DNA of 64,000 nucleotides. Source: a virus. Shown piece by piece: positions 31,911-54,242 of this stretch. The DNA lies in the IMG/VR virus record IMGVR_UViG_3300027659_000009, positions 64,001-128,000 of that record. The stretch is one strand, 5' to 3'. A program made the position numbers and the translations under genes. Positions within the stretch are counted from its first letter, which is position 1. Every line of letters starts with the position of its first letter. The notes below the pieces were generated by a model. That model had not been told where the DNA came from. It was given only the letters and a program-made list of their open reading frames with translations, and made no database searches.

Positions 31911-33323
31911 ATGAATGGGAAAAAAATAATTAAATTAACTGAATCTGATTTACTTAGAATAGTAAAGAGGGTTATTAATGAAAGTCAATTACTTGTTGAA
32001 GAGGTTAGTGCAACGACTAACAGATGTTGGTATTATAAACAAATCGCAGCCCAAAACTATTACAATGATAAAAGGGTGCCTAACCCGTTTGAAGGTGCGG
32101 GAGGAGTACAAGACTTTTTAATTGTATTAGGTTGGGATATTACTAAAGATTGGGATTTTGGTAATGAAACCGCAAAAGCGTTGGCGTTTTGGAAATATGG
32201 TAAAAATTCTGGTATAGATACAGTTAATAAGTTATGGATACAGTTAAAAAAAGATGGTTATAATGTGGGTGAAACTACTGGATATGGATCAAAAATGAAA
32301 GAAGCGGTCGCCACTATGATTTTAAAAACTTGTGAGGAAATATCTAAGACATGTAAAGTTGATTCACAGACACGTTTTGATATGGATTATAAATCGTCGC
32401 CCAAAGAAGATGTGGGGGTAAAACAAGTATTAATACCTAATGCATTGAATGGTAGTTTTAAATATGCGATAAGTTATTGGAGGAAATATCTAAAAAACCC
32501 TAAAGTTCAACAAAAAATATGGGATAATATGTCATTTTTTGACTTTCTATCAAATTTTACTCTAAGTAATTTAATGGATAAATATTTTAACGCATTAAAT
32601 AACATTGAGAAAAAGGGTTGGGTAGTTAAAAACTCTGAGGGGATTACAATGTATATTAACGGAGATTGTCCAAAATATACTGTATGTGTTAATATAAACT
32701 ATTATTTTAGTGTGTTTAAAGATTACAATATTAAAAAAGTTGAGGCTAAATCTGAAGATACATTTGTACATGAAATACAACATATATTGTGGGACCAAGT
32801 TCAAAAACTTAATTCAACAATAAGTATAGAACAAGCATTTCCTTCATCATATGATTATTACGGTTCAGAAGGAGAAGGACAAAAAATTAAAAATTTGTCT
32901 TTAAGTGAAAAAATTCCTGAAGAAACAAAAAAAGAATTAAAGAGTAAGGGTATTGACTCTGATAGATTAAAGGAATATTTTAGGCATCCTCAATACACTG
33001 ATGGTTATAACTGTGATTGGAATGAAAAGTTATCAAATTTGGCTGGTTATAGAAGTTATTTAACAGATAAAGGTACCATAAAAATTGGTGCTGATATACC
33101 ACTACAAGTCATCTCCGCAACTATAAATGATATGATAAGTACTACTACAAAAAAAGTACCCCTCGATTTTACACGTATGATAGCATGTTGGGTATTAGGA
33201 GGCATGAAACCAAAGTTAAGTGTGTTTGTAAATGAACTTAATGATTTGGCACAAAAAGAAATAAAACCTGAGGATAAGGATTATAATAATACTTCTCAGA
33301 TTGATAGTTATAACGTTACGTAA
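31911..33323 (+). CDS. Class A leader, PG-binding-like segment and zincin metallopeptidase
   Basis: KKIIKLTESDLLRIVKRVINE; VQDFL..DWDFG.ET..AL; FVHEIQH with downstream Glu. Confidence 0.65.
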   Translation: MNGKKIIKLTESDLLRIVKRVINESQLLVEEVSATTNRCWYYKQIAAQNYYNDKRVPNPFEGAGGVQDFLIVLGWDITKDWDFGNETAKALAFWKYGKNSGIDTVNKLWIQLKKDGYNVGETTGYGSKMKEAVATMILKTCEEISKTCKVDSQTRFDMDYKSSPKEDVGVKQVLIPNALNGSFKYAISYWRKYLKNPKVQQKIWDNMSFFDFLSNFTLSNLMDKYFNALNNIEKKGWVVKNSEGITMYINGDCPKYTVCVNINYYFSVFKDYNIKKVEAKSEDTFVHEIQHILWDQVQKLNSTISIEQAFPSSYDYYGSEGEGQKIKNLSLSEKIPEETKKELKSKGIDSDRLKEYFRHPQYTDGYNCDWNEKLSNLAGYRSYLTDKGTIKIGADIPLQVISATINDMISTTTKKVPLDFTRMIACWVLGGMKPKLSVFVNELNDLAQKEIKPEDKDYNNTSQIDSYNVT

Positions 33324-33334
33324 ACATAAAAAAT

Positions 33335-33556
33335 ATGAAAAAAATAGATATTAAAGTAGTGGCGGAACAAGAAACCGTTTTTGTTGTTGAATCTAGGAAA
33401 AGTGATACTAACAGTAAAGGTAAAATACAGAGGTACGCAATGGAAAAACCTTCTGAGGAATCTGTTGATGAAAACAATACGGAAGCAATTAATACTTTGA
33501 AAGACGAAGAAGTTGTTAAATATGGTAAAAAATACCTTAAAGAAAATAAGTGGTAA
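33335..33556 (+). CDS. Hypothetical protein
   Basis: ORF within the operon. Confidence 0.6.
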   Translation: MKKIDIKVVAEQETVFVVESRKSDTNSKGKIQRYAMEKPSEESVDENNTEAINTLKDEEVVKYGKKYLKENKW

Positions 33557-33557
33557 T

Positions 33558-33962
33558 ATGAATTTACGAGAAAATATAAGACGAGTATTAATGGTTATTA
33601 GTGAATCAAAGGATTGGGGTGACTCTAAAGAAAAATTGGAAAAAACCTTCAAATTCGAAGATTTTAATGACTCAATTGATTTTGTTAATAAAGTTGCTAA
33701 GATTGCAGAACAACAAAACCATCATCCCGACATCACGATAAAATATGATAAGGTTAAAATATCAATAACTGATCATGAAAAGGGTGGTGTTACCGAAAAA
33801 TGTCGTAAACTTGTAAAATCTATTAACAAAATAGAAGAACCCATCAAAGAAGAACATAATAAAATTGAATTAACTGAAAGGTGTTGGAGAGGATATACCC
33901 AAAAAGGAATGAAAACAATGTTTGGAAAGAGATACCCTAACTGTGTAAAGAAAACAAAATAA
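33558..33962 (+). CDS. Leader, pterin-4a-carbinolamine dehydratase (PhhB-like) and CWxGY module
   Basis: MNLRENIRRVL; F.DF..S.DFVNKVA.IAE..NHHPDI..TDH..GGVT; LTE-RCWRGY..PNCVK. Confidence 0.8.
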   Translation: MNLRENIRRVLMVISESKDWGDSKEKLEKTFKFEDFNDSIDFVNKVAKIAEQQNHHPDITIKYDKVKISITDHEKGGVTEKCRKLVKSINKIEEPIKEEHNKIELTERCWRGYTQKGMKTMFGKRYPNCVKKTK

Positions 33963-33963
33963 T

Positions 33964-34485
33964 ATGAATATACAAGAATCAATAAGAAGAATATTAAGGG
34001 AGGAATTAGATACCACACCAACTAAAGAAAAAGGAGAAAAAATGGGTACAGGCGACTGGGCCTTACCTTACAAAAATCCTATGGCACTTATTCAAAAATC
34101 ACCTGATGATTGGGATGGATTAGATGGTCATGACAATGGAAGACTTAAATTTAAAGAAATGAAATATGGTGTAAGGGCTGGTGTGAAAAATTTAAAAAAT
34201 ACATATTTCTTAAAGGGTAAAGGGGATACAACTTTAATTGACTTATTCAAAAAATACGCACCAAGTGGACATGGGGCTAACAACCCATCAAATTATGCAG
34301 ATTTTGTTGCAAATAAGATTGGTGTAAAAGTTACAGACAAATTATCGTGGGACAAATACGGTAAAAAAATATCCAGATCAATTATAAACTTCGAAACGGG
34401 AATACCAATAGGTGGATCAAAAAATAAAGTAACTGGTGTTACGGAAGATGAATTCGAAACGGGATACGCTTTAGTGAATAGTTAG
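33964..34485 (+). CDS. Leader plus lysozyme-like virion protein (NNPGNI / P5-like family)
   Basis: MNIQESIRRILREE; NPMAL, F...YGVRA, YAP...NNP.NY.DFVA, IINFETG. Confidence 0.55.
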   Translation: MNIQESIRRILREELDTTPTKEKGEKMGTGDWALPYKNPMALIQKSPDDWDGLDGHDNGRLKFKEMKYGVRAGVKNLKNTYFLKGKGDTTLIDLFKKYAPSGHGANNPSNYADFVANKIGVKVTDKLSWDKYGKKISRSIINFETGIPIGGSKNKVTGVTEDEFETGYALVNS

Positions 34486-34538
34486 TATATACTATCCCTA
34501 AAAAACCTAACAACTAAAAAACACATGTATTTATTAAT

Positions 34539-35237
34539 ATGATATCAAGTTTTATAACAGTAATAATACCTTGTAAGGATGAGGAGAATTATATAGGTGA
34601 TACACTATTATCACTAAACAATCAAAAAAACATAGAGGGTACAAAAGTTATTATATTAGACGGTGATTCCACTGATAATACCATTGATGTAATACATAAC
34701 ATTAAAAAAAAAGTTAATTATGAAATCCTTATTGAGAAAGGTGGTAAAGTTTCGTATGCACGTAATAAAGGTGCAACTATGGTTAATACAAAATATGTAT
34801 TATTTTTGGATGCTGATGTAACATTTACTGATAATGATACCATATTGTCAACCCTAAATGAATTAGAAAATGGATACGATTTAATTACGTGTAAGTTAAA
34901 AAGTAGATCGGGGTTCCCACTTAACTTAGGATTTTATTTATTCAACATAATACATTCAAAACTAAAAACTTCTTTTTCTATGGGTGCATACTTTATGACA
35001 TCTATAGAATCATTTAATGGTTATGGTGGATTCGATGAGACGATAAAACAAAGTGAAGATTTTATCTTAAGTAAAAAATACCCAATAGATAAATTTAAAA
35101 TCATAAACAGATATGTCACACAAGATGACAGAAGGTTTAAAAAGATGGGATATTGGTTCTACGTTAAATTTTTAATTAAGAATTATAAAAAAAGAAATGA
35201 TGAAAATCATTTTAGAAAAGAAATAAATTATTTTTAA
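34539..35237 (+). CDS. Glycosyltransferase family 2
   Basis: VIIPCKDEE, DGDSTDNT, ARNKGA, FLDAD, GGFDE, SED. Confidence 0.9.
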   Translation: MISSFITVIIPCKDEENYIGDTLLSLNNQKNIEGTKVIILDGDSTDNTIDVIHNIKKKVNYEILIEKGGKVSYARNKGATMVNTKYVLFLDADVTFTDNDTILSTLNELENGYDLITCKLKSRSGFPLNLGFYLFNIIHSKLKTSFSMGAYFMTSIESFNGYGGFDETIKQSEDFILSKKYPIDKFKIINRYVTQDDRRFKKMGYWFYVKFLIKNYKKRNDENHFRKEINYF

Positions 35238-35936
35238 ATGAAAGTAGATGCATTATTTATATCGGATGTACATTTAGGTAGTAAGGGATCTAATGCCGAA
35301 TTACTATTGGAGATGTTAAAAGAATATGAACCTAAAGAATTGATTATAGTGGGAGATTTCATTGATGGTTGGTTATTAAAGAAGAGACATTATTGGACAC
35401 AGGACTTCTCCAACGTTATCCGTAAGATTTTGTCATATACAAAGAAGGGAACTAAGGTAACTTATATCACTGGCAATCATGACGATTTTTTAAGAAGTTA
35501 CATCCCTATATACTTTGGTGATAATATAAATGTGGTAAATGAGATGGTATGGGAAGATTACTTTATAACACATGGAGACTTATATGATGGCATAGTACAA
35601 ATGAAATGGTTGGGTAAATTGGGATCATTTGGTTATGAACTGGCGATTAGTTTAGATATGTTAATGAAGAAGTTTGGTTATAAGAAATCATTAAGTAAAT
35701 TTTTAAAAAAGAAAGTAAAGGATGCGGTTAAGTTCATAACTAACTTTGAAGAACAATTGGTGTACCAATCTAAGAAAAGAAACTGTAAGGGAGTTATTTG
35801 TGGTCATATACATACACCAGAAAATAAATTCGTAGATGGTATACATTATCTAAACTGTGGTGATTGGATTGAGAACAATAGTTATATTATCTACGATGAT
35901 GGTAGATGGGAATTAAAAGAAATGATTAAATCATAA
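35238..35936 (+). CDS. LpxH2/PlcP-like metallophosphoesterase
   Basis: ISDVHLG, VGDFIDGW, GNHD, HGD, ICGHIH, YLNCGDWIE. Confidence 0.85.
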   Translation: MKVDALFISDVHLGSKGSNAELLLEMLKEYEPKELIIVGDFIDGWLLKKRHYWTQDFSNVIRKILSYTKKGTKVTYITGNHDDFLRSYIPIYFGDNINVVNEMVWEDYFITHGDLYDGIVQMKWLGKLGSFGYELAISLDMLMKKFGYKKSLSKFLKKKVKDAVKFITNFEEQLVYQSKKRNCKGVICGHIHTPENKFVDGIHYLNCGDWIENNSYIIYDDGRWELKEMIKS

Positions 35937-36137
35937 CAATTTCATAATATATAAAGGTTACACAATATAGTTTATCTTAGTATATATACCATATGATTAT
36001 ATTAACTATAGTGAGTATAACGTTTCTGATAGTAACGGTACATAAAGACAGAAAAGACTATTTCGAATATTACGGAAGAAGATAAATTCTTACCTCATTA
36101 ATGGGGATTTTTATTATATATGGTATATTTATATCAT

Positions 36138-37193
36138 ATGAAAACTTTAAACGAAGAAGTTAATAGAATAAGAGAAATGATGGGACTTCTTACTGAAGAA
36201 AGCGATGAAGGTTGTAAAGTTAAAAACGTAAATCAAAATGAGTTAGATGAATATTGGGGGGAACTTAAAAAGTTAAGCGGGGTTAATTTACAAACCGATA
36301 GACCTGAATTATATGAATTAGAAAAAGAAAAATTAAAAGAAGTTGAATCTTTTGTTAATCCAATACTTAATACTGCAAAAAATTATTATTTGGATTATAT
36401 CCAAAAAGATTGGTTTAACAAAAAAGTTGAAGAAAAAATAAATAATACACCTAATAATAATAAAAAGATTATTAAAAGTTGGGGTGAAACCGAAAAAACG
36501 GACTTAAAAAATTTTATAAATTCCGTTAAATTATCATTTATTTCAGAACAATGTAATAATACTTTAGGTAGAGTTTATCCAGATAAGTATGACACCATTT
36601 ATTTTTTTACTAAATGTACATACCCAAACGAAAAGAATAAAAAAGAAATTGAGATGATTTTAATTCACGAATTTGATCATTGTGTTTCCTTTTTTTTTAA
36701 GACAAGTAAAGGAATAGATTTCATACCTAAGGATGCAAAAGGACCTGATTATCCAAACATATTTAAACCAAATTATGGTAATGATTCAATTGAAAACTCC
36801 GCTAGAATTAAAAATTTAAAAAGAGAATTAGGTGTAGATTTTTTTGAATCAACAGATAATTTAAAAAACTTATTAGTTAAAAAGAATATAAATTTTATGG
36901 ACAAAGAAGGTAATTTATGTAAAATTATTTATGAAAATAATAAAATGGTTATATACAAAACTGAAAATATGTCTGAAAAAATTAATGATTTAGGTTATTT
37001 TGGTTTTTTAGTAAATAATAGTAAATTTTATGACATTGCAGTTTTATTTAGAACGTTTTCAGAACCAATATACAAACAAAATTCGGAAGATAAAAAGACA
37101 ATAATTGGTTGGGATATAGATTTAAATAAATTATTTAATTATCAACAAAAATTCGCCCAAAATAAAATAAATAATAGTCAACAGACGGCATGA
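36138..37193 (+). CDS. Class B leader plus zincin metallopeptidase
   Basis: MKTLNEEVNRIREMMGLLTE; LIHEFDH and ENSAR; TATTTAT at 36126. Confidence 0.7.
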   Translation: MKTLNEEVNRIREMMGLLTEESDEGCKVKNVNQNELDEYWGELKKLSGVNLQTDRPELYELEKEKLKEVESFVNPILNTAKNYYLDYIQKDWFNKKVEEKINNTPNNNKKIIKSWGETEKTDLKNFINSVKLSFISEQCNNTLGRVYPDKYDTIYFFTKCTYPNEKNKKEIEMILIHEFDHCVSFFFKTSKGIDFIPKDAKGPDYPNIFKPNYGNDSIENSARIKNLKRELGVDFFESTDNLKNLLVKKNINFMDKEGNLCKIIYENNKMVIYKTENMSEKINDLGYFGFLVNNSKFYDIAVLFRTFSEPIYKQNSEDKKTIIGWDIDLNKLFNYQQKFAQNKINNSQQTA

Positions 37194-37630
37194 ACCTACA
37201 AGAGGAAATACAAAGGATTAGAGAAATGATGGGGGTTATTAATGAAGGATTACACGACACATCATGGGAAAATGATGAGGGCGATAAAGTTACTTTAATA
37301 GACTTACTAAAAGCAACCAAAGACATACCCGTTAAGAAAATTTCTGTGAACAAGATTAAGTCCAAGTTATTAACGTGGGGTGATGATGAAAAAGAAATTG
37401 CCAAAATAGAAAAGTCTAACTTAAAATATCCGATATTAATATTTGTTGATGACAATAATAAATTCATTTCAATTATAGATGGTCATCATAGAGGGCAAAA
37501 AGCCGTAAAACACAAATTAAAAACAATCAAAGCAAAGTTAATACCAATTAACTCTTTGCCCAAAGATATAAAAAAAGTATTTAATCACATGAATCAAAAT
37601 GAACCTACAAGAAAACATACAAAGGATTAG
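37190..37630 (+). CDS. Class B leader plus ParB/Srx-like domain
   Basis: MNLQEEIQRIREMMGVINE; YPILI, IIDGHHR..KA. Confidence 0.75.
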   Translation: MNLQEEIQRIREMMGVINEGLHDTSWENDEGDKVTLIDLLKATKDIPVKKISVNKIKSKLLTWGDDEKEIAKIEKSNLKYPILIFVDDNNKFISIIDGHHRGQKAVKHKLKTIKAKLIPINSLPKDIKKVFNHMNQNEPTRKHTKD

Positions 37631-38753
37631 AGAAATGATGGGGATTAATGAAGTAACCAATCCCTATAGTGTTGATTGGATTACTCCTACAGAAGAATAT
37701 TTCACACAAGAGTTAGATGAACTATTGGGTAATGAGATGAGGTTCAGTAAAGACGAATTCTTCCACCCACAAAACTATGATACGTTATATTCATTATTTC
37801 CTCACACATTTAAAATGATCGCGGAACATTCCAAAGGGGATAACATAGAATCTGAAGAAGAAATAAAAGAAATATTAGTGGGTAAAGAGATTTCTGAATT
37901 AATGGATGATTGGAATGAATTTAGAAGTACATTAATGAGTGATAAAGAATCACAGATGGAGGCGTTCAATTTATTTAGAATGGGAACTATGGAACATTGG
38001 GATGATGAGAAAATTAATACCACATACTATATGGGTAATTTTAGTAAGAACTTTCCAGATATGTTTAAAGATACCACATCATCAGGTTTAATAAAACAAA
38101 TGGGTGACGATGTAAATTTACAAGGGTATAGTAAAAACATAAAGAACTTTAGAAACGATAGGAATTTAGAATTACCACCACCTTTTGTAATGACTTTACC
38201 GAGTGGAGGAAGAGAAGGTAATATGTATACATTAATAGGTGGAAATAAGAGATCCACAGTTGCCAGACAGTTAAATGTTCCAGTGGATGTATGGTTTATA
38301 GATTTGGGTAAGAATAAAAATATGAATGAATCAGATAATAAAGAAAAACCATCATTCTTATCTGCCATTAAAAAGTTTGGTTTATATTATTTTATGGAAA
38401 CAACACAAATTCCATTTACTGATATAATATTAAAAATAGGTGAACCGACAAGAGATATAGTAGAACGATACATTATAGATTTCATAATGGATGAAGGTTC
38501 AATAGATTATCCTGGTGATGGAGAGGGATTTTATGTTGATATTGATTTATATTTGACAGGTTTAAAAGTTATAGATAAAGTAATCAGTGATGGTAATTTA
38601 CTAGAGATTGAGGTAACAGAATATGAGAGAGGGCGGTACGGTTATAATGAAGAAGTTGCCAATTATATAAATGAATCAAAGGAATTTGATGACAGTGTTA
38701 TATACGAAATATTTAATACCGTTAGAAAAAGAAAAGAATTTCGAAGACAATAA
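37599..38753 (+). CDS. Class B leader, divergent ParB-like domain and an extra module
   Basis: MNLQENIQRIREMMGINE; LPPPFV..LIGGNKR; MNES linker. Confidence 0.65.
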   Translation: MNLQENIQRIREMMGINEVTNPYSVDWITPTEEYFTQELDELLGNEMRFSKDEFFHPQNYDTLYSLFPHTFKMIAEHSKGDNIESEEEIKEILVGKEISELMDDWNEFRSTLMSDKESQMEAFNLFRMGTMEHWDDEKINTTYYMGNFSKNFPDMFKDTTSSGLIKQMGDDVNLQGYSKNIKNFRNDRNLELPPPFVMTLPSGGREGNMYTLIGGNKRSTVARQLNVPVDVWFIDLGKNKNMNESDNKEKPSFLSAIKKFGLYYFMETTQIPFTDIILKIGEPTRDIVERYIIDFIMDEGSIDYPGDGEGFYVDIDLYLTGLKVIDKVISDGNLLEIEVTEYERGRYGYNEEVANYINESKEFDDSVIYEIFNTVRKRKEFRRQ

Positions 38754-38763
38754 GAATTAATAT

Positions 38764-39204
38764 ATGAACCTACAAGAATCCATAAGAAGAATATTAAGGG
38801 AAGATGAATATACTCCTGCAGGTAAAGAAATAACGCCAAACAAAATTGTTATACACAAATCTAATCCAATGTTTAGGGACAATATATTAATGGATGGGTT
38901 AAGGGTTAAATCAGGAGAATGTTATAAAATATATGTTGGTTATGGTATCAAGTGTAAACCCGCAATCTTTGCTACCAACTCAACAAATAAAAGAGCGTGG
39001 TTTGATTCAACTTATGATGATGATATATGGGAAATAAATACAGAAATGATTCCCGATGTTATGTGGTATAAAGATAGACATTATGATACAAGATCAAAAC
39101 ATATTGTAACATTTCAAGACATACCTTTAAATGCTTTAACTTTAAAATACAAAGGTGAAAGTATTGGTGATAGTACTTTACAAGAATCTATAAGAAGTTA
39201 TTGA
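38764..39204 (+). CDS. Leader plus ART-fold-like (H-type) domain
   Basis: MNLQESIRRILRE; VIHKS..NILMDGL, AIFAT, IP..AL; ends in a leader remnant LQESIR. Confidence 0.5.
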   Translation: MNLQESIRRILREDEYTPAGKEITPNKIVIHKSNPMFRDNILMDGLRVKSGECYKIYVGYGIKCKPAIFATNSTNKRAWFDSTYDDDIWEINTEMIPDVMWYKDRHYDTRSKHIVTFQDIPLNALTLKYKGESIGDSTLQESIRSY

Positions 39205-39245
39205 ACGATATATACATAGGGATTGAACGATATATACATAGGGAT
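39202..39245 (+). repeat. Tandem duplication of a 22-mer
   Basis: TGAACGATATATACATAGGGAT x2. Confidence 0.95.
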
Positions 39246-39284
39246 AACGAAGTAAGTATATAAGAAGAATATTTGAACCTCTAT
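39224..39284 (+). repeat. 61-bp intergenic direct repeat, copy 1
   Basis: Identical to 40912-40972; partial copy near 42811. Confidence 0.95.
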
Positions 39285-39330
39285 GTTGATATAGGGGTTT
39301 TTATGTTTTTGTCGATATTTATTTAATAGT

Positions 39331-40911
39331 ATGAAGATAATTGTCACAGAAGAACAAATAAAAAAAATCATAAATAATGTTTATGGTAATATATTATTTG
39401 AGGAAACTAAACCAAAACCTAAAAATCAAACTTATACTACAGTTCAAGATCGGTTGTTAACAAAAAATACTTTGACGGGAGGGGAATTAAAAATACCAAA
39501 GGGTACTAGATTTACCGCACACCAAAGTGGTGATAGAAAAGAAACTGGTGGTGCGGATTTTACGGCATCTGTAGATAGAATTACAAATGGTAAAAATAAA
39601 CCTTCTACTACTTTTTATTGTAATGGAACAAATGCTGGTAAATTTTGGAACGTAGCGTCAAAATCTTGGTACTACGATAAAACAAAAGTACTTTCAGGAT
39701 ATCTATCCAAAAATTTGTGTACTAAATCATACGGAGATCAATATTATTGGGAAAATATGGTCAAATGGAGTGAACAAAAACAAGAGAAAGAAGAAGATGC
39801 TTGGGCACTTGAAAATAGTCCGTATGTTGACGCAACTGGTAAAAAAGTTATGTACGATAAAAGTACTGAATTTAAAAAGAATTACGATTTCTTAAAAAGT
39901 CAAGGATTAAATGTTGATGGTCTTATGAGTTCATCAATGCCGCGTCCACTAAGTGCAAACCATCATTTTAACTTGTGTGCATTATTTAGTATAAAAGATA
40001 TTACAAATTTTCAAGCCAACAAGATCGGTTGGAATAATAAAGAATGTATGTCAATTGGTTTGTCTAGTTTAGGTAATGTTAAAATGAAGTCAAAATTATT
40101 AAATACTTATGACTCATCGGTGGGGACTCTTATTGATAACCGAAAATCACCACTATATACTCAATTTAGTAATACTGTATCTCCATCTTACGCAAATTTC
40201 TTCCTATCTGACTTTTATTTCCAATGGGGTAAATTACTTAATGATATTAATGATAGTGAGTCTTCCGCTGCTACGGTTTATTTCCCTGATGGTGTTTATA
40301 ATTTTATGTCAACATATTATGGAACACCAAATGTTAGTAAAATAAAAAAGACGATAGAATCAGTAAATGCGGGATGTCAAGGAGGAGGATTAACTCCAGA
40401 ACAAGGTCATAAAATACTTTCTACACTAACATTTATTAGTACATTTATTCCTGTTGTTGGACCATTTATTGCCGCTGGATTGGGCACGGTTGATGCTGCA
40501 ATACTTTATAGTGAAGGTAAAAAAACTGAGGCAGCACTTACTGTTGCTCTAAGTATAATACCTTTTGTTGGTGAGATTCCTGCGTTAAAAGGTATTGGAC
40601 AAGAGGTATTTAAAAGTGCTGCTACTAAATTAGCCACTAAAGTCCCATTAAATGCTGAGGAAATTTCTGCGTTTGGGAAACTTACAGGAGCCAAAGAGGA
40701 ATTTGATATTTTAGTAAAACAATGGGTTGCCAGTAAAGTGTCAAGTCCTGCGGTTCAACAAATTGTTCAAGTTGTAAAGAAAAAAGGTGAGGGGTACTTA
40801 GTCGATAAAATGTCGGAAAAAATTGGTGTTCCACTTAAGAAACCCACTGACATTGTAAAAAATGTTACAAAAGATGCGGCAAAATATTTGGCAAAGAAAA
40901 TTGATTCTTAA
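39331..40911 (+). CDS. Class A leader protein with pre-toxin (PT-TG-like) hydrophobic hairpin
   Basis: MKIIVTEEQIKKII; FIPVVGPFIAAGLGTVDAAILYSEGK..EAAL..ALSIIPFVG. Confidence 0.6.
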   Translation: MKIIVTEEQIKKIINNVYGNILFEETKPKPKNQTYTTVQDRLLTKNTLTGGELKIPKGTRFTAHQSGDRKETGGADFTASVDRITNGKNKPSTTFYCNGTNAGKFWNVASKSWYYDKTKVLSGYLSKNLCTKSYGDQYYWENMVKWSEQKQEKEEDAWALENSPYVDATGKKVMYDKSTEFKKNYDFLKSQGLNVDGLMSSSMPRPLSANHHFNLCALFSIKDITNFQANKIGWNNKECMSIGLSSLGNVKMKSKLLNTYDSSVGTLIDNRKSPLYTQFSNTVSPSYANFFLSDFYFQWGKLLNDINDSESSAATVYFPDGVYNFMSTYYGTPNVSKIKKTIESVNAGCQGGGLTPEQGHKILSTLTFISTFIPVVGPFIAAGLGTVDAAILYSEGKKTEAALTVALSIIPFVGEIPALKGIGQEVFKSAATKLATKVPLNAEEISAFGKLTGAKEEFDILVKQWVASKVSSPAVQQIVQVVKKKGEGYLVDKMSEKIGVPLKKPTDIVKNVTKDAAKYLAKKIDS

Positions 40912-40972
40912 TGAACGATATATACATAGGGATAACGAAGTAAGTATATAAGAAGAATATTTGAACCTCTAT
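40912..40972 (+). repeat. 61-bp intergenic direct repeat, copy 2
   Basis: Identical to 39224-39284. Confidence 0.95.
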
Positions 40973-41021
40973 AGTAAGAGGTTTTTGTTTTTGTCGATAT
41001 TTATTAATAAATTAAAATATT

Positions 41022-41558
41022 ATGGCAAGAATTATAAGATTAACAGAAAGAGATTTAACAAGATTGGTTAGACGAGTTATAAGAGAACAATTAACGGGTG
41101 AGGGTAACCAACCCGTAAGTAACGGTAAAAAAAATACAATTATTGAGATAACCAACCAATCTCAAGTTCCACAATCTTTGGTTGACAATGCTCCCCCCGT
41201 TGGGTATTATGATGCTAATAGGGGTTCTCATGATGAGAAAGGCCAATATATTGATATTACAGATGAAAATGGTGTAACATACCGATTAAGGAATTTTGAT
41301 TTCAACTTGGCAGCACATAGTACAAAAGGGATTATCGAAGCGGAATATAATAGTAACTTATTTCAAGGGGGTAAAGATTCTTCGGGTAGAGAATTGATAG
41401 CATATTTTAATGGTGTTCCAGGTTCTGAAGTTGTTCTTAATAACAAAGATAAATGGATTGGTTTTACGTCTGACGATAGTTCAATAAAGTTTGCATGTTT
41501 TTCAGACAAGACAGGAACCTTCTCTTGTAAAAAATATAAATGGGATATACCAAAATAA
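41022..41558 (+). CDS. Class A leader plus unknown cargo
   Basis: MARIIRLTERDLTRLVRRVIREQ; leader DNA nearly identical to 41691. Confidence 0.8.
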   Translation: MARIIRLTERDLTRLVRRVIREQLTGEGNQPVSNGKKNTIIEITNQSQVPQSLVDNAPPVGYYDANRGSHDEKGQYIDITDENGVTYRLRNFDFNLAAHSTKGIIEAEYNSNLFQGGKDSSGRELIAYFNGVPGSEVVLNNKDKWIGFTSDDSSIKFACFSDKTGTFSCKKYKWDIPK

Positions 41559-41690
41559 TAATAAAACAGTATTTCAAATTAAATCAGTTTTTTTTTTGAA
41601 CATAGAAGTATTTATAATAAATTAAAATATTTGGGGGGTTTTTTGTTTTTTTTTATATATCGAAGTATTTATTAATAAACAAAAAATATT

Positions 41691-42056
41691 ATGGGAAGAA
41701 TTATAAGATTAACAGAAAGAGATTTAACAAGATTGGTTAGACGAGTTATAAGAGAACAATCAGAGTCTGCCGTTTTTAACAAACAATATTTTATGGGTAA
41801 AAAAACAGGTAAAGTTAATTTTGACAATTCTGGATTCCCCACAACTGTTGATGGTGTTGAGATAACTGATTACGATACTCAGTGGAAAAATAATTTTACC
41901 GTTAGAAATATTGGGGGTAGAGGTTTCCGTGGAGGGGACTACAATTGGACTTATAGTGAAACTGTAGATTCAGGGATAATGGGACCTAACCAGAAAAAAC
42001 CTGGAATCTCAATTACAGACGCTCAAAATCAAGAAGTCGGCACATTACTATTTTAA
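41691..42056 (+). CDS. Class A leader plus unrelated cargo
   Basis: MGRIIRLTERDLTRLVRRVIREQ. Confidence 0.8.
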   Translation: MGRIIRLTERDLTRLVRRVIREQSESAVFNKQYFMGKKTGKVNFDNSGFPTTVDGVEITDYDTQWKNNFTVRNIGGRGFRGGDYNWTYSETVDSGIMGPNQKKPGISITDAQNQEVGTLLF

Positions 42057-42076
42057 AAAAATACTTTATAGAATAA

Positions 42077-42111
42077 AAAACCCCATTCCTAATAAGAGTG
42101 GGGGGTTTTTT
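42077..42111 (+). terminator. Terminator hairpin
   Basis: CCCCATTC..GAGTGGGG plus T run; similar element at 57248-57278. Confidence 0.75.
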
Positions 42112-42135
42112 GTTTATAACATATATTTATAATAT

Positions 42136-42771
42136 ATGAACATACAAGAAGAAATAAAAAGAATGAGACAAATGATGGGATTGAATGAACAAAAAGGTTC
42201 AATCACGTTAAGACTTGAAGGCCCTGTACAAACAGATTATACATATAATGGTCAAGAAGAACAAATATCATATCATATATATTCGGAGTTAAAAAAACTT
42301 AATGATGCAACGCAAATAACTAACGAAGATAAAACATATGCTGATTATGAAATGCAAGGTTATACAAATACTAAAAACGTTGAAGACACAATCAAAAAAG
42401 TAATACCATCGGTCACTTGTACAGTTAACGGTATGGATATAACGTGCACATTCACATTGAGTAAATCCTTAAACGAACAGGTTGGGTCAGAATATAATTT
42501 TAATACTGATGGAATGAAATCCGAAACACACGTATATACAATTACTGACATACAAGATTCTTCAAAAAAACAACGAGATCCTGCGGACCCTAAAAATAAT
42601 ACAAGAACAATACCTACAAAAAAAATAACATTGCAATGGACAAATCCACCACAAGGATTACCGTCTGAAACTATTGTAATCACTAAAGAGTGTGGAAACA
42701 ACACAATTACACCTCCGCGTGGGTATACATTAGACAATAAATTTATTGAATATGTAAACGGATTGTGTTAA
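42136..42771 (+). CDS. Class B leader plus two modules joined by LNEQ
   Basis: MNIQEEIKRMRQMMGLNEQ; internal SLNEQ. Confidence 0.75.
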   Translation: MNIQEEIKRMRQMMGLNEQKGSITLRLEGPVQTDYTYNGQEEQISYHIYSELKKLNDATQITNEDKTYADYEMQGYTNTKNVEDTIKKVIPSVTCTVNGMDITCTFTLSKSLNEQVGSEYNFNTDGMKSETHVYTITDIQDSSKKQRDPADPKNNTRTIPTKKITLQWTNPPQGLPSETIVITKECGNNTITPPRGYTLDNKFIEYVNGLC

Positions 42772-42917
42772 GATTCTCAAAGTCGGCAATAAAATCAAAC
42801 TACAATAACTAATATTTGAACCTTTATAGTGATATAGGGGTTTTTTTATGATATGTAAAATGAAATCCTTATAATATGTAAAGTAATATCCATCAAGAAG
42901 GGTTGGGATGATCGGAC

Positions 42918-42970
42918 AAAAGGGGTATCATTCGTTTTTGACATTGTAGTATGAAATTATTATAATTGTG
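42918..42970 (+). repeat. Promoter-containing degenerate direct repeat, left of HNH gene
   Basis: AAAAGGGGTATCATTCGTTTTTGACATTGTAG..ATTATAATTGTG; second copy at 43497-43549. Confidence 0.8.
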
Positions 42971-42972
42971 GA

Positions 42973-43533
42973 ATGGAAAAGAAAGTATGTAATACATGTG
43001 ATGTAAATAAATCCATTAATGAATATAGGGATAGGAATCAGTGTAAACAATGTGAAAATAAAATAAGATACCAACGTAATAAAGAACGTAGATTAAATGA
43101 TTCTGAATACAACGATAGATGGAAAAAGTATGATGTATACAGAAAAAGAAAAAAAGAGAATGAAGACCCTTATACTATGTTTATACAAATAGTAAGACAA
43201 ACAATTCGTAGAGGAATAAAAAGAAAAGGGTATACAAAGAAATCTAATGCGTATAAGATATTAGATTGTACATACGAAGAATTTAAAACACATATAGAAT
43301 CACAATTTAAAGAATGGATGAATTGGGATAACTATGGTAAGTATAACGGAGAAGAAAGATATGGATGGGATTTGGATCACATTATACCGTTATCATCTGG
43401 TAAGTGTGAAGAAGATATCATTAGATTAAATCACCATAGTAATATACAACCACTATGTTCGTATATAAACAGATGTGTGAAGAAAGATAAAATAGAAAAA
43501 GGGATATCAAACGTATTTGACATTGTAGAATAA
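42973..43533 (+). CDS. HNH endonuclease (free-standing, homing-like)
   Basis: N-terminal CxxC..CxxC; MNWDNYG, WDLDHIIP, NIQPL..N..K. Confidence 0.85.
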   Translation: MEKKVCNTCDVNKSINEYRDRNQCKQCENKIRYQRNKERRLNDSEYNDRWKKYDVYRKRKKENEDPYTMFIQIVRQTIRRGIKRKGYTKKSNAYKILDCTYEEFKTHIESQFKEWMNWDNYGKYNGEERYGWDLDHIIPLSSGKCEEDIIRLNHHSNIQPLCSYINRCVKKDKIEKGISNVFDIVE

Positions 43534-43549
43534 AGTCATTATAATTGTG
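43497..43549 (+). repeat. Promoter-containing degenerate direct repeat, right of HNH gene
   Basis: AAAAGGGATATCAAACGTATTTGACATTGTAG..ATTATAATTGTG. Confidence 0.8.
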
Positions 43550-43641
43550 ATAGTATATAAGATAAAATAAAATAAGAATGATATATAGATTAAGATATAA
43601 GTTGTTAAAATATATTCTAAGAAAATTAGTAATAAAATAAT

Positions 43642-44103
43642 ATGTATAATAAAAAAGGAAAAATAGGTTTTACTGCGGGTAACTTTGATTTGTTACATCC
43701 GGGTTATATATACACATTTGAGACTGCGAAAGAAAACTGTGATTACTTTATAGTATTCTTACAAAGAGATCCATCTGAAACAAGATTCACTAAATATAAA
43801 CCAGTCGTACCTTTGTATGAAAGATATAAAATTTTAATGTCTATTAAATACGTTGATGAAGTAGTAACATATCAGACAGAAGAAGATCTTATTAAGTTAA
43901 TTGAATTCTATAAACCAGATGTGAGAATTTTAGGTGATGATTATATAGGTAAAAGATTTACTGGAGATCACTTACCTATTGATGTAATATACACAACAAG
44001 ATCACATAATTGGTCAACAACTAAATTAAAAGACCTTATTACTAAACAGACTTTAAAACAAAATCCTGATATACTAAAAAAATTGGAATCAGATGAAATA
44101 TAA
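43642..44103 (+). CDS. Cytidylyltransferase (TagD/RfaE-like)
   Basis: AGNFDLLHPGY, KPV..ER, YVDEV, LGDDY, STT. Confidence 0.85.
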   Translation: MYNKKGKIGFTAGNFDLLHPGYIYTFETAKENCDYFIVFLQRDPSETRFTKYKPVVPLYERYKILMSIKYVDEVVTYQTEEDLIKLIEFYKPDVRILGDDYIGKRFTGDHLPIDVIYTTRSHNWSTTKLKDLITKQTLKQNPDILKKLESDEI

Positions 44104-44208
44104 TAACGTAATACACATTATAAGTCTATAATCTTATAATCATTTTAAGACCGTCTAGACACTATCGATTACAGATATATTTAGTTGTTTACTTAAATTA
44201 AAATACAA

Positions 44209-44394
44209 ATGATAACAGAAGAAGATTACTTAAAAGCAAAGTGGATAGTTCAAGAATACGAAAAACAATTGAATATATCTGGTGTTATAAAATCGGTTTG
44301 TTCACACCCTAAAGATTGTTTACTTATTAGAGGCAAAAATAAACCATTTCGATGTACATTGTGCGGGAAGTTGATTGAACAAACTGTTTTATAA
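44209..44394 (+). CDS. Small Zn-ribbon protein
   Basis: CSHP..CTLCG. Confidence 0.55.
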   Translation: MITEEDYLKAKWIVQEYEKQLNISGVIKSVCSHPKDCLLIRGKNKPFRCTLCGKLIEQTVL

Positions 44395-44830
44395 CATATC
44401 ACTATGGTACACTATGATATATAATAAACGATCGTTTAATGTGGTGTACCAGAAACCACCACAATTAAATCTATAAACTGTACCTTTAGTATAAAATGTA
44501 TTTGCCTCATTAAAATAACACTAATTTAATAATCGATGTTTACGGTGGTAAATTGTGGGAATTTTATTAACGTTTAATCAGAAAGGTATAGAAAACATTG
44601 CGTTGACCGTAGATTTACCCTATTTTTTTTCTGAAAATTTTAAGAACTTATTACAAATATACTGAAAAAAACTGTAAAAATCAACTTTTTAGAATAAAAG
44701 TTATTAACAAAAACTGAACTTTACCACTTTTTACCACAACCATATATTTAATAGTATGGGAGACGAAGAACAAGAGTGGGAACACGGGGATAATATCACA
44801 TTTTAATATGGTTCTCTATATTTATAATAA

Positions 44831-45883
44831 ATGAATAGAGAAACGTATTTAGTGAGAGTATTAGATATGATTATCAGAGATAGTCAGATAGAAGGAAAGA
44901 ATATTATATATCCTTTCTCTTTACCCTTGTATTCACTTCAGAACAATCAATCTTATTCACCGTTACATGATAATTTTATTAAATACTGTAAGGATCAGTA
45001 TGGATTGTCTGAGGAAGAGTCTAGGTATATGTGGTATGACTATAGTACTATTATGGGTAGGACTGTAAAAGATGAAGATACTGAAACACCTGAGGAGGAT
45101 TATATAGATGGGATGATTTACACACCTTTAGATGAAATATATTTATATGGTAATTTAGAACCACAAGAGAGGGATGTAAAAGAATCATTAAGGGTATATG
45201 GTTTCAATAGTGAGGGACACTATAAGTTCTTTATGAGAGTATATAATAGAATCATTGACTCGATAGAAATAAAACATTTAGGGAATGATAATCATTATGT
45301 TTTATTCATTAATGAATTCCGTAGAACTAGAGATGGTTTATTCGGGTTACGTTTATTAACAGATATTGGTAAATGTGATAAAGACTTTATAACATTTTCT
45401 TTAAGTTATACAGAATATATCTTCAGATGTTGTATAGATATATTAACAGAAGGGTTACCAGATGGTGGACAATATGTGGCGATTACTTTAAGTGATATGA
45501 TATTAGAATACATCTATAAAAATGTATTTCAAAATAAAATACTTCAAAGGGGAATTTCATTAAATGGAATTAATGAATCAGAGGTGAGAATGGATCGTTT
45601 TATGGAAAAGATATTACAGTTCTTAATTGATGATACATACTATATAGAAGATAATTTAATACAACTTCCATTCACTAATAAAACAGTGTCTATTCACTAT
45701 ACAAATACATACACTGAATGGAGTATATTAGATGTTATAACATATATACAAGAACCACCAAAATCATTTACTAATTACTGTGTAGATACATATGGGTTAG
45801 ATTCAGAATCCATTAGTTTAGTATGGGATAAGTATAGAGTATTCCTAATGGAGAACTTCCTTAGTCTAACAAAAAGATATTAA
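44831..45883 (+). CDS. YC..YGL repeat-domain polyprotein (two clear copies)
   Basis: YCKDQYGL and YCVDTYGL; INES linker; TATTTAT near 44819. Confidence 0.75.
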   Translation: MNRETYLVRVLDMIIRDSQIEGKNIIYPFSLPLYSLQNNQSYSPLHDNFIKYCKDQYGLSEEESRYMWYDYSTIMGRTVKDEDTETPEEDYIDGMIYTPLDEIYLYGNLEPQERDVKESLRVYGFNSEGHYKFFMRVYNRIIDSIEIKHLGNDNHYVLFINEFRRTRDGLFGLRLLTDIGKCDKDFITFSLSYTEYIFRCCIDILTEGLPDGGQYVAITLSDMILEYIYKNVFQNKILQRGISLNGINESEVRMDRFMEKILQFLIDDTYYIEDNLIQLPFTNKTVSIHYTNTYTEWSILDVITYIQEPPKSFTNYCVDTYGLDSESISLVWDKYRVFLMENFLSLTKRY

Positions 45884-45923
45884 TTTATTTGTGTATGTCA
45901 TTTATTATTACTACCTTTGGTAT

Positions 45924-46090
45924 GTTGGTGGTAGTACCGAAACAGGCGTACATCTGAAATAGATAGTGTGAAGGGATCAAAGGTCGGTTAGTCTAAGGTT
46001 TCCCTTATATAAAAATATAAGACAGGTCGGAGTATACCCTCTTAGAGAAGAACCTGTTTCTCTGACCCGTCTCGGTTATTAACCACTGAC
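45924..46090 (+). ncRNA. Candidate structured ncRNA between convergent host-type promoters
   Basis: Terminal stem GTTGGTGGTAGTACCGA / TCGGTTATTAACCACTGAC with internal hairpins; promoters at 45888-45919 (+) and 46095-46126 (-). Confidence 0.55.
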
Positions 46091-46151
46091 AATATAAAGG
46101 TACGAATAATTTTCGACATTACCAAATATTTATTAATATATTATTAAAGAA

Positions 46152-46568
46152 ATGAAGGTAACCATTAAAGGAATCATTAAGGAATCGAATGATAATAAAC
46201 AAAGGTATTACGATAAAGTATCTAAGGTAATACATCTACCATATTTAAGGGATCTTATATCATTAGGTGTACCACCAGATGAATGGAAACCTATATTATC
46301 TATTGTTTTTAAACAACCTGTGGCGATATCTGTTCACTCTATGGGTGATGAAATTAAAAGTGGGTATGTAATAGATAAATTTACACAAATCATTTATGAT
46401 GAAGATTCAAATGGTTATTATATAATAAGAGAATATGATAAGTTCCATAATAAAACATATCAATATAGAAGTATGGATAATTTTTGGGAGAAATCATTAT
46501 TTAATGATAAGGGAGACTGTGTATATAAATCAAACTCTAAAGGTATTATATTTGATTTAAGGTATTGA
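46152..46568 (+). CDS. Leader plus PPY module with YD-like repeats
   Basis: IKGIIKES; IHLPYLRDLISLGVP..EW.PIL; TATTTAT at 46127. Confidence 0.7.
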   Translation: MKVTIKGIIKESNDNKQRYYDKVSKVIHLPYLRDLISLGVPPDEWKPILSIVFKQPVAISVHSMGDEIKSGYVIDKFTQIIYDEDSNGYYIIREYDKFHNKTYQYRSMDNFWEKSLFNDKGDCVYKSNSKGIIFDLRY

Positions 46569-46617
46569 CTTTTTAATTTATTATAGTTAATATTGTATCA
46601 TAGTTGTTTGATATATT

Positions 46618-46758
46618 AGTCTACGGGGTTCGTTCCTTCCTCCCCACCCTATGGAAGGGAAAGGTGATTCTGGATGAACGAAAGTTTGTCATCACTGAAC
46701 AACGTAGACTCGATGGGATCAGTAACATATCGTACAAAGGTATGAATACAATCCCATC
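46618..46758 (+). ncRNA. Candidate three-way-junction ncRNA plus 3' hairpin
   Basis: AGTCTACG/CGTAGACT, CCTTCC/GGAAGG, GTGAT/ATCAC, GATGAAC-GAAA-GTTTGTC, GATGGGAT/ATCCCATC. Confidence 0.55.
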
Positions 46759-46836
46759 ACTATTAAAGGGATAATTTAATCATCGGATACTGTTAAAAGA
46801 TTCGTAAAAAATTATCCCTTTTTTTATTGTATTAAA

Positions 46837-46868
46837 TTTGACATTGTAATATATAATCACTATATTTG
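46837..46868 (+). promoter_or_regulatory. Bacteroidota-type promoter firing into a noncoding GC-rich region
   Basis: TTTG(ACATTGT)-N20-TATATTTG. Confidence 0.65.
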
Positions 46869-46899
46869 TAGTATGAAAAACATCTAAACCATATATATA

Positions 46900-47223: not shown

Positions 47224-47251
47224 CGTTTCCAAATATTTCAATATTTATAAT

Positions 47252-49700: not shown

Positions 49701-49755
49701 TCGGTTGTACGACCGAACTGTCCCATCACCCCAGCCCCTCTTGATGGGGTTTTTT
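49699..49755 (+). repeat. Hairpin plus terminator element, copy 1
   Basis: Near-identical to 51171-51228. Confidence 0.85.
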
Positions 49756-54189: not shown

Positions 54190-54242
54190 TGATTAATTTC
54201 TTCTAACATTACAAATTAATGTAAAAAAATAATAAAATTAAG

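Follow-up and report, generated by a model that had tools for sequence, protein, structure and literature searches.

The array of genes described here raises the question of how unrelated proteins come to begin with nearly the same short N-terminal leader. It lies in a 64,000-nt window (positions 64,001 to 128,000 of IMG/VR record IMGVR_UViG_3300027659_000009) of an uncultured T4-like giant phage, whose 166-kb record is about half (∼51%) complete and contains the head genes for a prohead protease (Peptidase_S77, E 9e-25), the portal (Portal_T4, E 2e-76) and Gp23 (E 3e-72). Dozens of genes are tagged in this way, with leaders of 14 to 25 residues that fall into at least four classes, and further arrays with the same leader repeats occur elsewhere in the record (e.g. 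53602-58627). Leader DNA (30–80 nt) and terminator–promoter blocks (60–125 nt) are nearly the sole dispersed repeats in the genome; of 18 dispersed DNA repeats across the 166 kb, 12 are leaders or blocks. No Pfam family was found for the cargos, and some of them resemble lysins or nucleases. We compared the array with syntenic relatives and near-identical strains, all variant haplotypes being contigs from independent metagenomes. Because three independent assemblies (L091, L092, and L100) match window positions 37313-47558 at 100% identity, the repeats are real and not an assembly artefact. We consider it highly probable that the genes are leader-tagged cassettes, shuffled by recombination between leaders and between blocks in a hyperplastic array.

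The leaders compared were:

33964..34005, + strand: leader (14 codons) of gene 33964
36138..36200, + strand: leader (21 codons) of gene 36120/36138
37190..37237, + strand: leader of gene 37190; crossover zone in contigs L096 and L112
37599..37646, + strand: leader of gene 37599
38759..38805, + strand: start and leader of gene 38764; left end of a 4-kb segment missing in contig L010
41014..41091, + strand: 5' UTR and 23-codon leader of gene 41022, with 77 of 78 nt as in gene 41691
41683..41760, + strand: 5' UTR and leader of gene 41691

The preliminary description had paired the leaders of genes 41022 and 41691, 37190 and 37599, and 33964 and 38764, and all three pairings held. The first pair shares 8 nt of 5' UTR and 23 codons with a single mismatch (95 nt at 95.8% when the promoter is included), and similarity between the two proteins is undetectable past codon 23. 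The second pair is 92% identical over 49 nt in front of unrelated cargos, and the third is 80% identical over 69 nt (92.5% over 40 nt). Throughout, the bodies behind near-identical leaders differed in length and had no detectable similarity. Genes 41022 and 41691 use identical codons at 21 of 21 synonymous-capable positions, compared with 10.4 expected from codon usage, and a chance origin of the leader identity is thus excluded; another neighbouring pair agrees at 16 of 18 such positions (9.2 expected).

Between the genes stand terminators and promoters. Each unit opens with a late-type promoter box, continues with a short conserved leader at the N-terminus of an unrelated cargo, and in most cases closes with a terminator. 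The late-type box of the array also lies upstream of the portal, protease and tail genes, and the array blocks are without a sigma-70 −35/−10 pair; matches at 12 of 12 sigma-70 positions were found only at 42938 and 43517, around gene 42973. Terminator-like hairpins with T-runs occur at 36093, 39275, 40963, 42081, and 42811, and the 42811-type terminator also follows a truncated homologue of gene 37599 in contig L009. The packed part of the array has no intergenic block whatever, and there the leader coding sequence serves as the recombination site.

36093..36137, + strand: block ahead of gene 36138, made up of terminator hairpin, T-run and late-type promoter box
42081..42183, + strand: terminator, late box (42123) and leader of gene 42136
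42811..42845, + strand: terminator closing the array; right end of the segment missing in L010
42918..43549, + strand: gene 42973-43533 (endonuclease VII/HNH-type) between two 53-nt repeats, each with a perfect sigma-70 promoter

Gene 39331 was said to be bracketed by a repeat that contains a leader-like piece, and we found both to be so:

39202..39245, + strand: tandem duplication of 22 nt at the left edge of repeat copy 1
39224..39284, + strand: copy 1 of the 61-nt repeat (leader fragment and 5' arm of a terminator)
39331..40911, + strand: gene 39331 (526 aa, class C leader), between the repeat copies
40912..40972, + strand: copy 2 of the 61-nt repeat, followed by a hairpin (40963-40984) and a late box (40997-41005)

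The direct repeat is exact over its 61 nt, with homology extending to ∼105 nt at 89.5% and indels in the hairpin; copy 1 together with the hairpin at 39275-39300 and the late box at 39315-39323 forms the block upstream of gene 39331. The leader-like piece, 14 nt long, occurs four times in 166 kb, in two true leaders (33982 and 38782) and in the two repeat copies (39260 and 40948). A 12-nt motif marks unit boundaries at 38759, 39268, 40956, and 42811 and is found nowhere else in the 166 kb. A homologue of gene 39331 (54%) lies in an unrelated neighbourhood in contigs L007/L008, and the arrays of L009, L010, and L012 do not contain the gene. The suggested excision of 39224-40911 found no counterpart: the predicted junction was in no contig, and among the contigs searched there was no empty site, the repeat core being seen only in pairs around a 39331 homologue.

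The preliminary description had proposed that breakpoints in relatives would fall at leader ends and at the repeats, and that fixed gene content and order would speak against exchange. Instead of fixed content, the cargo sets of three syntenic relatives differ from one to the next while the anchors on either side are conserved, a pattern shown by IMG/VR relatives of 59–127 kb. The breakpoints also behaved as proposed: for the 28 block ends, the median distance to a leader end or to a start or stop codon was 7 nt, compared with ∼140 nt (139) for random positions, and 61% of them were within 12 nt of such a module boundary versus 8% expected (0 of 20,000 permutations as extreme; p<5e-5). Across relatives and co-occurring strains, breakpoints were found at the start, in the interior and at the end of leaders, as well as in intergenic blocks. 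Junctions inside a leader with flanks 97–99.9% identical were seen in L108, L105, and L112-L114, and exchange ends in terminator/late-promoter blocks were seen in L093/L104/L106 and L010.

The near-identical strains place individual crossovers. Contig L108 is 99.9% identical to the window over 4,487 nt, up to position 37642 inside the leader of gene 37599, past which it has another leader tail and another cargo; it comes from the same sample as a window-type contig (L094), and at its far end it has a 38764-type leader again, as a true allele of the locus would. In L105 the crossover follows codon 12 of the 41691 leader and leads into a different leader tail and cargo. This contig is a recombinant that joins the window and L093 haplotypes, and its crossover falls within 17 nt common to all leaders; the product is found in one contig only, and for that single case some residual chance of an assembly or read chimera has to be allowed. 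Behind another leader 5' half, L112-L114 and L117 carry the 36120 cargo at 97% identity, which begins at ∼36165-36195, and the junction after that coincides with the beginning of the 37190 leader; in L112, a different leader tail and cargo follow the first 11 nt of that leader. The gene upstream of 37190 is replaced in L096, and the 5' part of the 37190 leader there resembles that of 37599. The replacement in L093/L104/L105 has its right breakpoint within 42081..42183, identity being regained at 42102, and the 41022 cassette is missing in L093 and L104. A 109-aa replacement was seen again in three samples. A 274-aa cassette encoding an identical protein was found in six further samples and three neighbourhoods, in contexts that repeat across five to six samples, with identity running from its own ATG to 23–68 nt into the next leader.

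Contig L010 shows the same at greater distance. Its homology to the window stops at 34005, the end of the 33964 leader, and restarts at 34499, the 33964-type leader being followed by an unrelated cargo and 3 kb of extra genes; a whole extra gene with a class A leader stands between the 36093..36137 block and the ATG of gene 36138; and the 4-kb segment between 38759..38805 and 42811..42845 is missing. Some leader-end breakpoints in the more distant relatives could equally reflect whole-cassette replacement, with the leaders then alike at the family level; the L093 leader, for example, is only ∼75% identical. Observed directly are the repeats and the mosaic arrangement, the places where breakpoints lie, recombinant haplotypes, and the recurrence of one cassette in different contexts.

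Earlier exchanges have left scars:

38322..38336, + strand: leader scar inside gene 37599 (residues 242-246)
39175..39197, + strand: remnant of a leader, stranded as the C-terminus of gene 38764
41589..41645, + strand: stranded promoter–UTR copy abutting the 3' half of a terminator

The stranded leader claimed for the end of gene 38764 is there as a leader-like C-terminal peptide, and the L010 homologue lacks this tail, the leader of the next gene beginning at that point. Gene 37599 is two cassettes fused, the second leader having lost 33 nt in frame; the halves occur separately elsewhere, the N-terminal half as a stand-alone gene in L009 and the C-terminal half as a stand-alone gene with a leader in L010. 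At 41589..41645 no gene lies between promoter–UTR and terminator, which is a deletion scar, and its T-run matches that after the hairpin at 40963-40984; these direct repeats bound the 41022 cassette.

Other histories can be imagined for such an array. Tandem duplication and divergence would make the genes old paralogues whose leaders stay alike through purifying selection on the peptide, the leader DNA itself not recombining. The closest leader pairs are indeed mostly adjacent genes, and the modest excess of identical codons over all leader pairs (414 versus 328 expected) could be common descent; however, cargos of dissimilar sequence and length follow leaders identical even at synonymous sites, strains with 97–99.9% identical flanks have unrelated cargos, one cargo is found behind different leaders, and an identical cassette is found in different contexts, all of which leaves this account scarcely credible. 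An assembly artefact, in which metagenome contigs were wrongly joined at repeated leader k-mers and the variant haplotypes are chimeras, is in our view very unlikely. Leaders do have exact stretches of 17–45 nt in common, L105 is a single contig, and assemblers do break at leader boundaries, where several contigs end (e.g. L098 at 41091), but the shared stretches are shorter than the large k-mers implied by the 'k141' contig names, and the window arrangement is exact in three assemblies. The recurrence of the 109-aa replacement and of the 274-aa cassette contexts across samples, the return of L108 to a 38764-type leader and the agreement of the IMG/VR relatives likewise argue against chimerism.

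Two further accounts invoke an enzyme. Integron-like, site-specific exchange would require a recombinase of its own, the gene for which might lie in the half of the genome not recovered, acting at defined repeat sites, and we give it almost no credence: although unit boundaries carry a motif confined to four sites, gene 39331 lies between exact direct repeats and the record is ∼51% complete, no match to a tyrosine recombinase (Phage_integrase, PF00589) was found in the 166 kb, cassettes have promoters of their own, neither an empty site nor an excision junction was found, and crossovers are scattered over the T-run, the hairpin loop, the gap between promoter and ATG, the ATG, codons 10-15 and the leader end. 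The preliminary description thus survives in its proposal that recombination in leader DNA and blocks swaps, inserts and deletes cargo, but not in its integron-like label. Alternatively, the endonuclease VII/HNH-type product of gene 42973 might break DNA that is then repaired from co-infecting relatives, giving local gene conversion comparable to that by the free-standing homing endonucleases of T4 and acting alongside leader and block homology instead of replacing it. The gene matches phrog_1035 endonuclease VII (E 4e-17), is flanked by the repeated perfect sigma-70 promoters, and is kept beside the array in both L010 and L012, although its N-terminal part varies. Against this, no Pfam domain reached threshold, arrays such as 53602-58627 have the same leader repeats without an adjoining nuclease gene, and T4 endonuclease VII is a junction resolvase and is not known as a homing enzyme. 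We regard a contribution of this kind as improbable.

Shuffling of leader-tagged cassettes would proceed by general homologous and short-homology recombination between leader and block repeats, within concatemers or between co-infecting relatives, and cargos would be inserted, deleted, fused or replaced in consequence. Because crossing over within a leader preserves the reading frame automatically, each exchange would give a new gene, correctly tagged and expressed. We infer that the enzymology is that of phage recombination functions; as a point against, the 166 kb (roughly half of the genome) yielded no RecA/UvsX gene. As for the leaders, we lean slightly toward their being T4-style capsid-targeting propeptides cut by a gp21-type prohead protease, a reading favoured by the prohead protease, portal and Gp23 genes, by the virion-gene promoter box, by the lysin- or nuclease-like nature of some cargos and by the T-even internal proteins, which have only such a leader in common; against it, class B leaders do not all end directly in (I/L)-x-E. 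The array would then be a shifting collection of proteins that are packaged and probably injected. Of note, we tentatively postulate, with considerable doubt, that leader DNA is a selected dual-purpose element, a capsid address as peptide and a dispersed in-frame recombination site as DNA. If true, effector bodies could be exchanged whole, in plug-and-play fashion and at high frequency, among loci as well as among co-infecting relatives, perhaps with a boost from the adjoining endonuclease VII-type nuclease; this would be a phage counterpart of polymorphic-toxin tip switching.

Gene shuffling is already known in T4-type phages, and the array is closest to T-even internal-protein (IP) loci (Repoila et al. 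1994, EMBO J 13:4181) and PeSL (promoter-early stem-loop) cassettes. In IP loci, ORFs are alike only in a short N-terminal leader, and the loci are polymorphic in ORF number, order and identity (PMC12373910, PMC3012670). Here, too, a T4-type phage has a polymorphic locus of unrelated ORFs with a common leader, and a gp21-type prohead protease, which may cleave the leader, is present as a gene. Promoter and inverted-repeat sequences reportedly flank the IP ORFs and are said to have been proposed to mediate shuffling. The IP loci differ in having one motif of ∼10-11 residues, three to ten tagged genes and an early promoter, and crossovers inside the coding leader are directly documented in the present array. 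The leader-bearing proteins had no match in the cultured phages of the collection (tblastn, E up to 1), and motifs of this length are too short for homology to the T4 capsid-targeting motif to be judged.

PeSL are cassettes of T4-type phages (Arbiol et al. 2010, PMC2839356; Comeau et al. 2014, PMC4122927). As in PeSL, composite blocks of terminator stem-loop plus promoter, ∼100 nt long, lie upstream of ORFans in hyperplastic regions, bound indels or replacements between close relatives (here L093/L104, and L010 versus the window) and enclose genes between two copies, as with gene 39331; PeSL crossovers map between the −10 box and the ATG, which the L010 insertion upstream of gene 36138 resembles. 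PeSL blocks contain a sigma-70 early promoter, in contrast to the array blocks, and only the two blocks around gene 42973 are classically PeSL-like; the segment 42918..43549 is a true PeSL-type early block at the right border of the array. Mini-circles formed by recombination of flanking blocks are a further PeSL feature, and here no excision junction was present in the contigs. Integrons also are directional arrays of small, unrelated, exchangeable genes, but they have an adjacent IntI, promoterless cassettes under one common promoter and a fixed attC crossover, whereas the cassettes here have individual boxes and terminators, and exchange follows homology, with crossovers scattered along leaders and blocks and at no fixed site. 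In the CDI/Rhs polymorphic toxin loci, toxin tips are replaced by recombination at DNA for a conserved peptide motif, and orphan cassettes occur. These loci are alike in that conserved-peptide DNA doubles as homology for swapping an unrelated domain in frame, with old junction fragments as scars; they are bacterial, their motif precedes a C-terminal toxin, and they are unrelated in sequence and in the machinery served.

New here are the virion-gene promoter box in the blocks and the coding leader itself as crossover site. Natural haplotypes resolve, to the single nucleotide, how a large environmental phage renews its accessory proteins: leaders and blocks act as portable homology by which unrelated genes are swapped in frame, ready to be expressed and probably to be loaded into the capsid. 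Recovery of the cassette pool of such phages from metagenomes could be anchored on leader and block sequences. The principle of IP loci and PeSL thereby reaches a T4-like lineage that is distant and uncultured, and it comes to include promoters of late type and crossovers that fall inside coding sequence; the cargos are good candidates for injected host-takeover or anti-defence proteins.

The leaders, short conserved N-terminal coding stretches, recur nearly unchanged in front of unrelated protein bodies (cargos). Genes 41022 and 41691 (named, as throughout, by their start coordinates) share 78 nt of their start regions with one mismatch, and their proteins match at 22 of the first 23 residues with no similarity beyond. 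The leaders of 37190 and 37599 are 92% identical over 49 nt and those of 33964 and 38764 80% over 69 nt; pairwise protein comparison found the cargos behind the other shared-leader pairs likewise unrelated. The preliminary description had pointed to these shared sequences, to a 61-bp repeat around gene 39331, and to a stranded leader remnant ending 38764, and each of these observations was borne out: the repeat is an exact 61-nt direct repeat and the C-terminus of 38764 is a leader-like peptide (39175-39197). At the codon level, all 21 synonymous-capable codons are identical between the 41022 and 41691 leaders (10.4 expected from codon usage), as are 16 of 18 between those of 56273 and 56704 (9.2 expected). 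Selection on the peptide cannot account for this codon identity, and we conclude that leader DNA was recently copied or exchanged. Assembly artefact is ruled out for the window sequence, since three independent assemblies reproduce 37313-47558 with 100% identity.

When the whole record was compared with itself (same strand, at least 28 nt, at least 85% identity), only 18 dispersed repeats emerged, comprising 9 leader–leader pairs, 3 promoter/terminator blocks, and 6 internal domain repeats. Thus, leaders and blocks, which make up 12 of the 18, are practically the sole dispersed homology on offer in the record. Further repeats, cargos, and border elements were as follows.

49698-49755 and 51170-51227: a second intergenic direct-repeat pair (58 nt, 93%), bracketing genes 49791, 50081, and 50573; 49791 is absent at this site from L010, a relative
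40996-41030 and 57288-57322: a 35-nt promoter-UTR-start block (97%), before 41022 and, 16 kb off, before 57314, whose product has only its first three codons in common with the class A leader
36138-37193 and 31911-33323: cargos with an H-E-x-x-H motif, typical of zinc metalloproteases
33558-33962: pterin-4a-carbinolamine dehydratase (Pterin_4a, E 4e-23) with a class B leader
33964: cargo similar to a lysin domain seen in large virion proteins (phrog_873, E 1.5e-11)
37190: ParB-like nuclease signature (phrog_17560, E 6e-12)
42973-43533: endonuclease VII/HNH-type gene (phrog_1035, E 4e-17) flanking the array on its right side here and bordering it in all relatives
42918-42970 and 43497-43549: 53-nt repeats bracketing 42973-43533, each with a 12-of-12 sigma-70 promoter

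Pfam searches with ten array proteins yielded nothing except a sub-threshold PG_binding_1 match in 31911. The N-terminal part of the border nuclease varies between relatives (186, 240, and 484 aa).

Three IMG/VR relatives (L009, L010, and L012/L013) are syntenic with 31900-52000. As expected of the recombining cassettes that had been proposed, gene content differs between fixed anchors, and the differences end near leader or gene boundaries. The anchors kept in all three are 34539/35238 (79-98% protein identity), 42973, 44831, 46152, 47853, and 50081; the set of leader-bearing genes between them differs in each relative (8 in the window, 9 in L010, 5 in L009), and cargos in L010 are related to window genes in only three of its nine. 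L010 lacks the segment 38768-42810 (genes 39331, 41022, 41691, and 42136), and both ends of this gap fall in a 12-nt motif whose only four copies in 166 kb (38759, 39268, 40956, and 42811) are exactly the unit boundaries; in L010, moreover, an entire additional gene separates the promoter block from the ATG of 36138. In L009, the N-half of gene 37599 exists as a stand-alone gene with a terminator after it; in L010, the C-half stands alone with a leader of its own; and where the two halves meet in the window, 33 nt of this second leader have been lost in frame. On this comparison, 37599 is a fusion of two cassettes. Between the window, L010, and L055, the leader subtype in front of the 38764 cargo differs. 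When the 28 ends of homology blocks across the array were measured against the nearest start codon, stop codon, or leader end, the median distance was 7 nt, compared with 139 nt for random positions; 61% fell within 12 nt of such a boundary (8% expected), and none of 20,000 permutations was as extreme. In the more distant relatives, a breakpoint at a leader end cannot always be separated from replacement of a whole cassette with a similar leader. C-terminal tails seem to be shuffled too: a 37190-like gene of L012 (15471-15992) ends with the C-terminal ~38 residues of the 33558-33962 product at 71% identity.

Near-identical strains, retrieved by exact-protein look-ups and all of them metagenome contigs, place the junctions more closely. 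Contigs from three samples (L093, from ERZ27247900, L104, and L106), with flanks 97-99.7% identical to the window, are without the 41022 cassette and have a 109-aa gene in place of 41691; on the left they depart from the window in the T-run/promoter block that follows the hairpin 40963-40984, and on the right the breakpoint is within the terminator, about 42102. A blastn HSP had placed the left breakpoint of L093 at the leader end, which base-level alignment rules out because the L093 leader is a different allele. Contig L105 (sample 3300017784) follows the window exactly from the 41691 promoter to leader codon 12 and then has an L093-type leader tail and cargo, so that the window, the L093 type, and L105 form three haplotypes. 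L105 is the recombinant among them, and its crossover falls within 17 nt that every copy shares. This recombinant is supported by one contig only, while most other variants recur across samples. Contig L108 shares its sample (JGI 3300027608) with the window-type contig L094; it matches window 33156-37642 at 99.9% identity, diverges within the 37599 leader, and continues with four other leader genes before a 38764-type leader returns. Its 274-aa cassette encodes a protein found identically in six other samples and three different neighbourhoods, where identity to L108 runs from the ATG to 23-68 nt into the next leader. In L112-L114 and L117, the cargo of 36120 (the same gene as 36138) is kept at 97% nucleotide identity with a different leader 5' half, and identity reaches the start of the next leader, beyond which lie another leader tail and cargo; in L096, a 129-aa gene replaces 36120 and window identity starts exactly at the 37190 ATG. 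These junctions fall into two regimes: crossovers lie in leaders where stop and start codons overlap (36138-38764) and in terminator/promoter blocks where there is space between the genes (38764-42973). Separately, an 881-nt contig (L109), short and possibly chimeric, hints at a tandem second 37190 cargo (93.5%) behind a 37599-type leader.

The 61-nt repeat forms the left portion of a larger block (about 105-125 nt) that is present on both sides of gene 39331 and contains a leader fragment, a terminator 5' arm, a hairpin with variable loop, a T-run, and a late box. Such duplication is the architecture expected if the gene and one block had been inserted by recombination within a resident block, a scheme also drawn for PeSL-flanked ORFans in section 16 of PMC2839356 (PeSL being the promoter-early stem-loop cassette of T4-type phages). 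Mobility of 39331 is supported by its absence from the arrays of L009, L010, and L012 and by its sole IMG/VR homologues, at 54% identity, lying in an unrelated neighbourhood. The suggested excision of 39224-40911 did not find support: the single-repeat junction was not found in metagenome contigs with an exact-match pattern, which misses diverged variants, nor was any empty site for 39331, and the repeat core occurred in only two further contigs, each time as a pair around a 39331 homologue. In a 96%-identical strain, both repeat copies are unchanged, and the differences in 39331 are grouped in two patches, with 21 nt between the end of the second and the stop codon; this hints at patch exchange, but no breakpoint falls exactly at the repeat. 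Across 96-97% identical strains, differences in 39331 are confined to a short indel-rich loop (39582-39612) and the C-terminal ~100 codons (40619-40890). A hydrophobic, glycine-rich stretch in its protein hints at membrane insertion; adjoining the homologue in the IMG/VR relative L008 are a G+C-rich, apparently structured non-coding stretch and tRNA-like sequence (9400-9900 and 11900-12000). The most plausible reading of the stranded leader at 39175-39197, the leader fragment in the repeat, and a stranded promoter (41589-41645) that continues into half a terminator is that they are scars left by past deletions between short stretches of shared sequence.

The simplest reading would be that dispersed leaders and blocks recombine through general homology and short homology, either on concatemers during replication or when related phages infect the same cell. 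Recombination nuclease subunits of the gp46/gp47 type are encoded in the record; neither RecA/UvsX nor a tyrosine integrase was found in it, at a CheckV completeness of about 51%. A site-specific recombinase acting on the array is argued against by the crossovers, which are scattered along shared sequence. Thus, of the earlier proposal of homologous recombination in an integron-like array, the swapping of cargo at leaders and blocks stands in both relatives and strains, but the integron label does not, given scattered crossovers and no integrase found. The putative endonuclease VII/HNH-type nuclease at the border may stimulate exchange.

The record (single, 166,352 bp, 30% G+C, with the window as bases 64001-128000) has nearly all genes on one strand; among their products are a large terminase of T4 type, a portal protein (Portal_T4, E 2e-76), the major head protein Gp23 (E 3e-72), and a prohead serine protease of the gp21 type (Peptidase_S77, E 9e-25). 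Its nearest cultured phage is Flavobacterium phage 'immuto', and terminase identity of only 28%, together with no match to 36000-43000 in a DNA search of the cultured-phage collection, marks it as a distant, uncultured, T4-like giant phage. Codon usage and an absence of Shine-Dalgarno sequences point to Bacteroidota as a candidate host group. A protein search of that collection with one leader-bearing gene gave no match at E up to 1, IMG/VR gave no relative of the 41022 protein, and no Rfam family matched 33000-44000 at E up to 0.1. Leaders are not limited to 37190-42130: about 45 of the record's genes start with one of four related N-terminal peptides. Among 80 IMG/VR loci with anchor gene 35238, leader genes occur only in the closest five and one other, and the ~70 more distant loci have essentially none; by this survey, leaders are specific to this lineage. 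Each spaced array gene is preceded by a terminator hairpin with T-run and a short A/T box. The box is also found 10-35 nt before the portal, prohead-protease, and tail genes and, from this position, is a putative late-type promoter of this phage. We lean toward T4-style capsid targeting as the predicted purpose of the leaders because a T4-type prohead protease is present, leader genes and virion genes have their promoter box in common, (I/L)-x-E occurs at or shortly after most leader ends, and some cargos are lysin-like or nuclease-like. A leader of this kind is the sole feature shared by T4 internal proteins (PMC3012670, PMC12373910).

The array works like the two known systems nearest to it, the PeSL cassettes and the polymorphic internal-protein loci of T-even phages. 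It is not a formal PeSL member, since the defining early sigma-70 promoter is absent from blocks inside the array; it may belong with the T-even loci, which are also polymorphic and leader-tagged. The cassette-shuffling principle itself is not new. New here, as read from the genome, are a cassette array whose blocks carry putative late-type promoters, with dozens of tagged genes in several leader classes, and natural haplotypes that give direct evidence of in-frame crossovers within the coding leader.
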